From Candidatus Micrarchaeota archaeon (lineage in GTDB: Archaea; Micrarchaeota; Micrarchaeia; Anstonellales; Bilamarchaeaceae), in the NCBI GenBank assembly GCA_018304385.1, contig JAGVWJ010000002.1, positions 1-43,830 of the forward strand: 43,830 nt of DNA, in the 5' to 3' direction. Position numbers and translations under genes: made by a program. This document shows, piece after piece, positions 9,735-11,998 of this stretch (position 1 is its first letter; the number at the start of each line of letters is the position of its first letter). Below the pieces are notes generated by a model. The model did no database searches and was not told the DNA's origin. It was given only the letters and a program-made list of their open reading frames with translations.

Positions 9735-9956
9735 ATGGTTAATATAACTCTTTCGATACCTGCTGAGATTAAAAAAATGATGGAAACATACGAAGAAGTA
9801 AAATGGAGTGAGGTCGCAAGAAAGGCGATAATACAAAAACTTGCAGTGTTAAGAAAGCTAGATGAACTTAGCCAATCAAGCAAAATTACTGATAAAGACA
9901 TTGAGAAGATGGAACATGAAATAAAAAGAAAAGTAGCTAAGAAACACGGGATATAA
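9735..9956 (+). CDS. Ribbon-helix-helix antitoxin (VapB/CopG-like)
   Basis: MVNITLSIP.EIKK.M......KWSEVARKAI pattern; GGTGA RBS; abuts a PIN gene. Confidence 0.85.
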   Translation: MVNITLSIPAEIKKMMETYEEVKWSEVARKAIIQKLAVLRKLDELSQSSKITDKDIEKMEHEIKRKVAKKHGI

Positions 9957-10373
9957 ATGGACTTGGTTGTAGATACAAATATACTACTTGCTTGTTTTAA
10001 GCCAAACTCCGTTACGAGAAGATTAATTGCTATTGAAGATTTACATTTATTTACTACAGAATATCAGTTAATTGAGGTTAAAGAATATGTTGGCAAGATA
10101 GCTGACAAATACTCTCTTAGTGAATCCTTTATTGAAGAAACCTTTATGTTTTTGGAGGAACACCTTGAGATTGTTCCAAAAGAGGACTATCAAAATTTCA
10201 TTAGTAAGGTTGAGAACCTAATTTCAGATAAAGATGATTTGCCTGCTTTGGCACTAGCTGCTGCAAAAAACATTGCAGTTTGGTCAAATGATCCTCACTT
10301 TGAAGAGCAGGATAAGATTAAAGTTTATAAAACAAAGGAATTGATCGAACTAATAAAGAGAAGTGAGTTATAA
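9957..10373 (+). CDS. PIN-domain toxin (VapC-like)
   Basis: LVVDTNIL, D.DD.P.LALA, VWSNDPHF acidic PIN motifs. Confidence 0.92.
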   Translation: MDLVVDTNILLACFKPNSVTRRLIAIEDLHLFTTEYQLIEVKEYVGKIADKYSLSESFIEETFMFLEEHLEIVPKEDYQNFISKVENLISDKDDLPALALAAAKNIAVWSNDPHFEEQDKIKVYKTKELIELIKRSEL

Positions 10374-10394: not shown

Positions 10395-10402
10395 TTTATA
10401 AA
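10395..10402 (+). promoter_or_regulatory. Putative TATA box driving the structured leader and ArsR-like gene
   Basis: TTTATAAA preceded by a purine-rich stretch, about 23 nt upstream of the first hairpin. Confidence 0.55.
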
Positions 10403-10424
10403 AGAAAAAAACAGATTTTATTTA

Positions 10425-10664
10425 TCCTGATCCTCCAAAAAAAGTCGGATCAGTCTGTTCACAACCAATAAAGTAACTTCCGTGGTTGTGACTAAGAACA
10501 AGCTTTGCCAGGATGACATTGAAATTTTTGCAAAAAAATAAATTTCAATACTTGACGCAATTTTTTGAATTTGCGTCAATGGCATAAAAATCCTGACAAG
10601 ATGCCCACGCAATTGTTGCCAAGAAAAAGAGGCAACAATCGGGAAACGTAGTTGGTTGTGAACA
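10425..10664 (+). promoter_or_regulatory. Highly structured ~240-nt leader / candidate cis-regulatory RNA
   Basis: Five perfect 7-10 bp stems, one 10-bp stem with a single mismatch, and a perfect 13-bp long-range complement (10456-10468 with 10652-10664). Confidence 0.6.
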
Positions 10665-11158
10665 TGGATTACATCCTAATTGATAGGCAAAAACTAAAGG
10701 CGCTGTTAAGCGAGAGCAGAATTACAATACTTAAACACCTTGCAAAGCGTCGCTACACTATAACAGAGCTTGCAGAAATGCTAAACACTACCAAAAGCAA
10801 TGTTGCAGATCATCTTGATAAATTAGAGGAAACGCAGCTCGTAGAGCAAATAGATGAAGGAAGGAAATGGAAGTATTATACGCTTACAACCGAAGGAAGG
10901 AGGGTGATTGAAGGCGGAAGCATTGCGAAACCAATAGCTATACTTCTTGTAAGCGCTTTCCTAATGACCATAGTTGCATTTAACATATTAACTACTATAA
11001 GCGAAAGTGCAAGGCTCGCCGCTTTGCAGCAGGTTGATAGCGAATTTAGTTTTATACCAAAGTTTGATATGATTGTAATGGTTACAGCAGAAATGGTTTT
11101 AGCAATAATTCTAATATGGTCGATTCTTGAATTCGTAAAATGTAGGGGCAGGATATAG
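10664..11158 (+). CDS. ArsR-family winged-HTH protein with two C-terminal transmembrane helices
   Basis: KALLSESRITILK.L..RRYTITELAE.L...KSNV..HL.KL.E..LV......RKWKYYTLT..G, followed by two hydrophobic segments. Confidence 0.85.
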   Translation: MDYILIDRQKLKALLSESRITILKHLAKRRYTITELAEMLNTTKSNVADHLDKLEETQLVEQIDEGRKWKYYTLTTEGRRVIEGGSIAKPIAILLVSAFLMTIVAFNILTTISESARLAALQQVDSEFSFIPKFDMIVMVTAEMVLAIILIWSILEFVKCRGRI

Positions 11159-11998
11159 ATGCGAGTAGATATAAAAATAATTTACGCAATTATTTTATTA
11201 CTAGTTATAATTGCAATAGACGCGCTATTTATCGAACCATATAGATTAATTATTACTGAAAACAATTTCGATTTGTTTGATGGTGCTGATACAAAAATAA
11301 GAATAATTCTTATTAGTGATATACATATTGGTTCGCAACGAGATGGTTATTTGGATGAGGTTGTAAATAAAATAAATAATTTGGAACCAGATATTATATT
11401 GATTGCGGGGGATAGTATTAATCATCATGAAATAGAATTATCAAGGCTCGCACCATTGAAAAAGCTTAGAACACGCTATGGTGCTTTTGCAGTTTTAGGA
11501 AATCATGATTATGGATGGTGGGGTTGTCCAATATCTCAGAACGAAATAGAAATGAGCAATAAGGTAGAAAAAAGAATTGAAGAGCTTGGCATAACAGTAA
11601 TGCGAAACGAAAATAAGATAATTGAAATAAATGGCAAGCGCTTTGCTCTTATTGGTTTGGATGACGTATGGGTATGCAAAAATGATTATAAAAAGGCAAG
11701 CGAAAATGTTAGCGATACCCTGCCTAAGATAATATTTATGCATAACAGCAAATCGATAGACCCGCAGCAAGTAACAGGAAAAAGCCTAATTCTAGCTGGG
11801 CATACACATTGCGGTCAAATAAGAATACCTTTTGTTACAGAGTCTTTGCTTGTGCAAGGCGAATTTGGGCATATTACTGGAGGTAAAGCTCAACTAGATA
11901 GCGATACTGAGATATATACCACGTGCGGCGTAACGCAAGGATCAATGAATATAAGATTCCTTACTAATCCAGAGATAAGCACGATCAGCATCGAATAG
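11159..11998 (+). CDS. Calcineurin-like metallophosphoesterase (YkuE/YaeI-like), N-terminal membrane anchor
   Basis: SDIHIG, AGD, LGNHDY, H and AGHTHCGQ motifs. Confidence 0.92.
   Translation: MRVDIKIIYAIILLLVIIAIDALFIEPYRLIITENNFDLFDGADTKIRIILISDIHIGSQRDGYLDEVVNKINNLEPDIILIAGDSINHHEIELSRLAPLKKLRTRYGAFAVLGNHDYGWWGCPISQNEIEMSNKVEKRIEELGITVMRNENKIIEINGKRFALIGLDDVWVCKNDYKKASENVSDTLPKIIFMHNSKSIDPQQVTGKSLILAGHTHCGQIRIPFVTESLLVQGEFGHITGGKAQLDSDTEIYTTCGVTQGSMNIRFLTNPEISTISIE

Follow-up and report, generated by a model that had tools for sequence, protein, structure and literature searches.

The ArsR-family regulator gene of this Candidatus Micrarchaeota archaeon is preceded by a strongly structured stretch of 242 nt, and the question is whether this stretch is a regulatory RNA of the gene or a sequence that has come from elsewhere. 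The original prediction, made for positions 10425-10664 of the 43,830-nt stretch of DNA analysed here (the window), was a translational on/off switch or thermosensor dedicated to the regulator; a MITE and an array of palindromic operators were named as alternatives. All stems proposed at that time were recovered in the inverted-repeat list and in the minimum free energy (MFE) fold, and so were the two exclusive alternatives for arm A, which can pair either locally with A'1 or over 13 bp with A'2 (Table 1). The proposed upstream TATA box was present as well, with 20 nt between its 3′ end and the TATCC at 10423. The last base of the 13-bp closing stem is A10664 of the ATG at 10664-10666.

Table 1. 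Features of the leader and its neighbouring genes; coordinates are positions in the window.
Feature	Coordinates	Strand	Size or pairing	Basis
PIN-domain gene upstream of the leader	9957-10373			
TATA-like box TTTATAAA of the ArsR-family gene	10395-10402	+		read from sequence
Whole composite copy of the dispersed element (model R1), TATCC to final A	10423-10664	+		
5′ hairpin H1, CTGATCC / GGATCAG	10427-10453	+	13-nt loop	
H1 stem	10427-33/10447-53		7 bp	inverted-repeat list and fold
Arm A TGTTCACAACCAA, 5′ side of closing stem	10456-10468	+		inverted-repeat list
Closing stem	10456-68/10652-64		13 bp, 100% complementary	
Local alternative inverted repeat	10459-74/10476-91			
Inner arm A'1 TGGTTGTGA, local alternative partner of arm A	10483-10491	+		
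Nested insert (outer stem and three hairpins)	10492-10636	+		
Outer stem of insert	10505-14/10590-99		one mismatch	seen in MFE fold
Insert hairpin 1 (10518-10549)	10518-27/10540-49		10 bp	
Insert hairpin 2 (10552-10579)	10552-63/10568-79		12 nt, 92%	
Insert hairpin 3 (10612-10639)	10612-20/10631-39		9 bp	
Conserved unpaired tail AATCGGGAAACGTAG; family consensus AATCGGnAWWACTTAGT	10637-10651	+		alignments
Arm A'2 TTGGTTGTGAACA, 3′ side of closing stem, last base the A of ATG	10652-10664	+		
ArsR-family winged-helix regulator, two hydrophobic C-terminal segments	10664-11158	+	164 aa	Pfam HTH_5, 1e-9
Metallophosphoesterase gene directly 3′ of the regulator	11159-11998			Pfam Metallophos, 1.6e-14

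The MFE of the leader was -79.7 kcal/mol, versus -50.7 +/- 4.6 kcal/mol in dinucleotide shuffles (z = -6.3), and none of the 200 shuffles was as good. The reverse strand showed the same fold strength (z = -6.3). The pairings of arm A with A'1 and A'2 are mutually exclusive. The closed long-range pairing was predicted to win at all temperatures tested from 10 to 55 °C; its advantage was 6.2 kcal/mol at 37 °C and fell from 9.6 kcal/mol at 10 °C to 4.0 kcal/mol at 55 °C. In the predicted ensemble the probability of being unpaired was about zero for 10652-10663, and the 12 nt preceding the AUG were paired in essentially all of it. A sequestered start region, a second possible partner for it and a strong z-score are also what a riboswitch or RNA thermometer of the ArsR-family gene would offer. 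However, an RNA thermometer has a weak stem with mismatches that covers the SD/AUG and melts at physiological temperatures, whereas the stem found here is a perfect 13-bp helix that is still favoured from 10 to 55 °C. An Rfam search with the leader and 13 other copies of the same element gave nothing near a gathering score (the top scores were 19.5 of 37.6 bits for ES036 and 21.2 of 120.3 bits for RAGATH-22), in agreement with the earlier failure to match the leader to any riboswitch.

The surroundings of the regulator gene were compared with those of its homologues. Alignments with the homologues begin at residue 2-5, which makes the ATG at 10664 the start codon. The closest homologues are at most 45% identical in related genomes and at most 55% in metagenomes. 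The element was not found within 1.5 kb of the gene at any of 91 homologous loci (80 from metagenomes and 11 from related genomes). On visual inspection, a TATA-like box precedes the ATG by about 20-25 nt in 7 of the 11 homologues from related genomes, which is a leaderless layout; a strict TATA pattern occurred only nine times among 72 metagenomic homologues, six of these at 20-23 nt, which lends this layout weak support. Two other assemblies of the same population encode an identical regulator protein and have an identical leader, so that no polymorphism was seen at the ArsR site. An empty ArsR site was found neither in these two assemblies nor among the homologues of relatives and metagenomes. 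Directly upstream of the element lies a likely VapBC-type toxin-antitoxin pair (9735-10373), with a 73-aa RHH_12 ORF abutting the PIN_2 gene.

A DNA search of the organism's own 1.53-Mb assembly, followed by reading of the matches, revealed 14 copies of the element, which we call R1, on contigs C1, C2, C4, C16, C20 (two), C24, C26, C29, C31, C39, C51, C55 and C60. These copies adjoin unrelated genes, such as those for an AAA ATPase, a HisF paralogue and membrane proteins, and a short ORF before ftsZ. The R1 unit of about 97 nt begins with TATCC, followed by H1 (6-9 bp), ATCTA, the arm TWCANAACC, a variable interior and the arm GGTTNTGWATA; the arms form a closing stem of 11-13 bp around the interior, in which the motifs GAGATAAAAC, AATCGG and ACTTAGT are conserved and unpaired. 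The boundaries follow from the copy on C29 (10879-10992, antisense, between the stop codon of an SDR gene and the start of the HisF paralogue). This copy is 99% identical over 97 nt to one in G021, a genome of another genus (C73:4665-4778), and the flanks have no homology; the unit therefore extends from TATCC to the final TA, which in the window corresponds to 10423-10664. The HisF paralogue shares only 45-49% identity with homologues from the relatives searched (G001, G005 and G009).

On C26 (31813-32000) a copy ends on the ATG of a putative 46-codon ORF, and an FtsZ-like gene follows this ORF directly. The H1 loop can contain an extra insertion of about 50 nt (CAGYGAMCTYCGKTCACTAG...CAGGAT), which was present on C16 (9126-9194), on C31 (3656-3725) and in the related genome G002 (C12, L054), and its own stem shows compensatory changes among these three. 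Over-length copies in G015 (L102 and L105) and G021 (L098) suggest the same H1-loop insertion.

The genome-wide count bears on both the main reading and the MITE alternative of the original prediction. A riboswitch or thermosensor dedicated to the ArsR-family gene fails because many dispersed copies exist in unrelated contexts (14 here and up to 74 in relatives), so that the same architecture stands before unrelated genes, while the homologous ArsR loci are without it. In addition, the interior of the leader is built of repeats that it has in common with other genera, and R1 differs from riboswitches in that it lacks a conserved aptamer, an Rfam match, a link to any one gene family and a G-U signature on the sense strand. 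We therefore consider a dedicated switch or thermometer extremely improbable. The MITE alternative came close to the truth as far as the dispersed copies are concerned, but its boundaries have to be changed, as the unit is 10423-10664 and includes the 5′ hairpin. Likewise, the 13-bp inverted repeat exists, but it is the internal closing stem of the element, and the interior holds three further nested repeats. At the true ends only about 5 nt are inverted (TATMC...GWATA), and the 11-13 bp inverted repeat begins after the 5′ hairpin. R1 is small, non-coding and multicopy and varies in copy number and position between relatives, as MITEs do; it departs from the classical TIR-MITE in that the long inverted repeat does not enclose the 5′ hairpin.

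To follow R1 in other genomes, a covariance model was built from 11 copies, which recovers all copies in this genome. Among 24 other genomes of the same GTDB family the model detected R1 in 10, and each of these had between 1 and 74 hits. Outside this family it gave no hit, neither in 16 genomes from other families of the order nor in 123 genomes that represent 19 further families of the phylum. Copy numbers varied even within a genus, with counts of 14, 0 and 12 in one (g1) and of 19, 0 and 0 in another (g2). In the genome with 74 hits, several matches lie at contig ends. When 185,579 species genomes were scanned for exact motif matches, these came almost only from metagenome-assembled genomes (MAGs) labelled Candidatus Micrarchaeota or Candidatus Bilamarchaeaceae. 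Seven exact 19-mer matches on viral contigs and 11 in genomes labelled otherwise were checked with the model: all viral and bacterial ones were chance matches, and one MAG labelled Candidatus ainarchaeum carries a real copy. Viruses were rejected as carriers, as no viral 19-mer match was a true copy. R1 was found only in one family of Micrarchaeota, probably the Bilamarchaeaceae.

Insertions could be traced at several sites. The 17 copies fetched from G041 are almost the same in sequence and form two subtypes, between which the arms differ by compensatory changes; this is the signature of a recent burst. On C2 of this genome, the element lies between the former GGAG RBS region and the ATG of an intact 680-codon AAA-ATPase gene; the orthologue in G002 (74% identity over 54 alignable N-terminal residues) has the same TATA box and the GGAG RBS before its ATG, and the element is absent. 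Among the ATPase sites only that of G002 was usable for such a comparison, and the relatives of HisF were too divergent (45-49%). G003 and G070 do not have the copy that is present at G041:C5:9857. When the copy at G041:C2:7557-7670 was compared with G070:C34, homology ended exactly at the 5′ end of the element; in G041 the upstream ORF continues for 29 codons within the element and stops in arm A'2. In G070 (C34) the same upstream gene ends at a TGA overlapping the ATG of the next gene, and this downstream gene is absent after the element in G041, so that a rearrangement coincides with the insertion. A further copy (G041:C43:4689-4958) abuts, on the opposite strand, the truncated end of a tnpB (Cas12f1-like_TNB) fragment and appears to have inserted into the gene of another mobile element. 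Taken together, R1 is repeated, patchy, variable in copy number, polymorphic between orthologous sites, near-identical across genera and unlinked to ArsR genes.

The copy in front of the ArsR-family gene is longer than the simpler copies of its subfamily, such as that on C2, and the difference of about 145 nt (10492-10636) lies between the inner arm and the AATCGGGAAAC tail. The hairpins of this insert gave separate matches of 88-97% identity on C31 and C15 of the same genome and in G005, G021 and G022; matches in G006 and G029 were weaker and do not look like the same hairpin. Hairpins 1 and 2 occur as a paired module inside R1 copies on C31 and in G021, at a different position, hairpin 2 has a copy of its own in G005, and hairpin 3 is found with 94-97% identity on C15, in G005 and in G022. 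The insert is therefore made up of three separate dispersed mini-repeats nested in R1 as their host element.

The mini-repeats were also inspected at their other sites. The two-hairpin module consists of CATTGAAAWWTTT..AAATTTCAAT followed by TTGACRC..GYGTCAA and stands directly after arm A in R1 copies of two genera (own C31, L005, 3744-3810; G021:C133; G021:C44); in the window (10518-10579) it has another position within the element. Its second hairpin shows a compensatory change, and the module behaves as an independent nested mini-repeat. The third hairpin, ATTGTTGCC..GGCAACAAT, has CGGGAA after it and shows 94-97% identity between three genera (window, 10604-10645; own C15:7308-7340; G005:C39:29558-29593; G022:C95:4287-4320). 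It is accompanied on C15 and in G005 by another nested hairpin, CCCATTGTTCGA..TCGAACAAT, which has a repeated ACAAT on its flanks. These hairpin chains have the AATCGGGAA tail in common with R1.

The composition of the insert also bears on the operator array that had been named as an alternative. ArsR proteins commonly recognise inverted repeats close to the promoters of their own genes, and several perfect palindromes downstream of the promoter could thus be operators for autoregulation, or sites for another DNA-binding protein. However, the five palindromes have five different sequences, each of them is a copy of a repeat that occurs at unrelated loci, and homologous loci are without these palindromes. 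Because the palindromes are copies of repeats found in other genera too, the operator array is unsupported, and we regard it as very improbable.

Covariation, which had been suggested as a check of the predicted RNA, was strong across 80 copies from nine genomes, though almost purely Watson-Crick. Standard pairs were formed in 96.6% of the cells in the alignment, compared to 80.1% in shuffles and 27-44% when the partners were slid; as the alignment was fitted to the model, these figures are somewhat inflated. Compensatory changes were found in 13 of 17 pairs, comprising 6 of 6 in H1 and 7 of 11 in the closing stem. We counted 1286 Watson-Crick pairs, 11 G-U pairs on the sense strand and 21 A-C combinations, which correspond to G-U on the other strand. 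Since sense G-U pairs are not in excess of antisense ones, there is no sign of selection on the sense RNA in particular. The constraint looks like complementarity itself, as expected for mobile DNA that is recognised by its hairpins or for young copies of paired masters.

R1 has no general orientation preference: of 97 copies, 29 lie between divergent genes, 18 in tandem regions in sense, 20 in tandem regions in antisense and 7 between convergent genes, and copies are also found behind stop codons. Nevertheless, one placement departs strongly from chance: a TG follows the element in 31 of the 97 copies, so that its last A begins an ATG, and in 15 of the 97 this A is a real start, which we defined as the ATG of an ORF of at least 65 codons (65 to 680 codons were observed). 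It is always the same end and strand of the element that abuts the ORF. A strict TATA-like box 17-25 nt upstream of the TATCC was present in 7 of these 15 copies versus 4 of the 82 others, with about 5-7% matches in other distance bins; by eye, about 10 of the 15 have a TATA. The copy in front of the ArsR-family gene fits this arrangement, with 20 nt between its TATA box at 10395-10402 and the element and a TG after the element. Moreover, G follows TAT in 29 of 63 copies versus about 18% G in the genome. The abutment on start codons and the TATA spacing look like insertion at the +1 of leaderless genes, at the TA of TATG, and in the C2 case a gene with a Shine-Dalgarno sequence was struck at the same position.

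A second arm complementary to arm A, such as A'1 in the window, was present in seven copies (6 of 78 scored and the window copy), of which five belong to this genome and one each to G021 and G005. In these two genomes, which are of other genera, the second arm has changed together with arm A. Two-arm copies abut real ORFs in 5 of 7 cases versus 10 of 73 for single-arm copies, a hint, from a small sample of related copies, that the two-arm variant matters where the element covers the start codon.

These observations would be accommodated if the mobile R1 were at the same time a portable RNA leader, which, where its 3′ end abuts an AUG, is either cut at the base of the closing stem, restoring a leaderless mRNA, or sets translation by toggling between the A:A'1 pairing, with a free start, and the A:A'2 pairing, with a buried one. 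The 15 copies ending exactly on a start-codon A, the frequent G after TAT, the C2 copy before the ATG of its intact gene, the two-arm excess at real ORFs and the co-changing inner arm all point in this direction. On the other hand, sense and antisense copies are about equally frequent in tandem regions (18 versus 20), copies also lie behind stops and between convergent genes, G-U pairs are no commoner on the sense strand, and the closed state is preferred by 4 to 10 kcal/mol at all temperatures tested. On balance such a double role seems unlikely to us. In its most specific form this reading would make R1 a mobile 5′ leader with strand specificity that targets the +1/ATG of leaderless archaeal genes and is then cleaved or folded on and off by its inner arm; we think this quite unlikely, but if true it would be a transposable translation-control module of a kind not described in archaea. 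The flush abutment and the two-arm association are hints that some copies may have a role at the RNA level.

Three other possible signals were considered and rejected. Reading of the copies revealed no TATA-like box 23-30 nt before the ATG inside the element, so an internal promoter for a leaderless transcript was discarded. A Shine-Dalgarno sequence in the 3′ arm was dismissed, as GGTTGTGA is similar to GGAGGTGA in a subset of the arm variants only and its end lies 2 nt from the ATG. An anti-SD mimic in the H1 loop was excluded too, since CCTCC is found in one subfamily only.

We also searched for the target site and the enzyme that may mobilise R1. A TA at both ends fits the two empty-site comparisons, but TA is also part of the conserved element and of the covarying stem. 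The 17 near-identical G041 copies showed no duplication longer than TA, and no fixed target of 4-5 nt was seen 5′ of the copies. Genes for the Y1 transposase domain (Y1_Tnp), TnpB and the IS630-type DDE_3 were each surveyed in 31 genomes. Five of the 12 genomes that carry R1, the three richest among them, have Y1_Tnp, as do four of the 16 that lack R1; none was detected in this genome, G002, G009 or G017, which have 12-14 copies each. TnpB did not track the element, and neither did DDE_3, which occurs in one of the 31. Filter-free model searches and motif scans at eight tnpA or tnpB loci revealed no element ends, and no autonomous partner with R1 ends was found near Y1_Tnp or TnpB genes in these incomplete assemblies.

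How R1 relates to known systems can be judged from these properties. Correia repeat-enclosed elements are bounded by long terminal inverted repeats and show a TA duplication. In Neisseria, these elements (CREE/NEMIS) are non-coding repeats of ~100-200 bp, with more than 120 copies reported in N. gonorrhoeae, that lie mostly just 5′ of genes, are co-transcribed into mRNA leaders, fold and alter expression; they can carry regulatory sites. Sigma-70-like promoters and a site for IHF are present in them as well, and when transcribed they are cleaved by RNase III at the TIRs (PMC10969869). Among the described systems R1 most resembles such elements that become folded mRNA leaders. It differs from them in being archaeal and asymmetric, with a 5′ hairpin and a separate closing stem, in showing no promoter of its own and at most a possible TA duplication, and in lying flush with start codons in 15% of the copies. 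With REP/BIME-RAYT systems and the IS200/IS605 PATEs R1 has in common that hairpins are strictly kept while the sequence is imperfectly conserved, and that clear TIRs or target site duplications are missing. The strand-specific placement at start codons fits the structure-recognising single-strand mechanism of these systems, and the three R1-richest genomes encode a Y1 transposase. In contrast to REP/RAYT and PATE systems, however, Y1 was undetected in four genomes with 12-14 copies and present in four without R1, and, unlike in PATEs, no R1-like ends were found at the tnpA/tnpB genes examined and no fixed 5′ target of 4-5 nt was seen. The papers searched on repeats of Micrarchaeota or DPANN gave no description of the R1 family, and in a large census of MITEs Altiarchaeum and a Woesearchaeon are the only DPANN mentioned (PMC11602168).

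Taken as a whole, the data make it probable that 10423-10664 consists of small non-autonomous mobile repeats nested in one another, rather than being a sensor that evolved for the ArsR-family gene. According to this model, R1 would have landed at the TA of an ancestral TATA-N20-TATG, at the +1 of a probably leaderless gene, and the three unrelated hairpin mini-repeats would have been added later to its interior. As the 3′ end of the TATA box lies 20 nt before the element, transcription is expected from about 10423-10426; the host promoter would now initiate at the first bases of the element and the whole 242 nt would become a 5′ leader. At equilibrium the closing stem would then bury the 12 nt preceding the AUG together with its A. 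A'1 would be transcribed about 170 nt before A'2 and could keep the start region open for a time, and any opening would be kinetic, protein-driven or derived from processing. The base pairing may be kept because the element itself requires it while it spreads, most likely in the form of folded single-stranded DNA or RNA. In this way insertion would convert leaderless genes into genes with a long structured leader.

For the regulator, these results remove a false riboswitch lead. They raise the question of how a formerly leaderless archaeal mRNA is translated when it has a structured leader of 100-240 nt and no Shine-Dalgarno sequence, and whether transcription start sites are recognised by the insertion machinery. 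For the lineage, they define a repeat family without a description in the papers searched, which is confined to one lineage and has clear boundaries, a covariance model and strong covariation, and they show that small structured repeats in Micrarchaeota nest in one another and cross genus boundaries.
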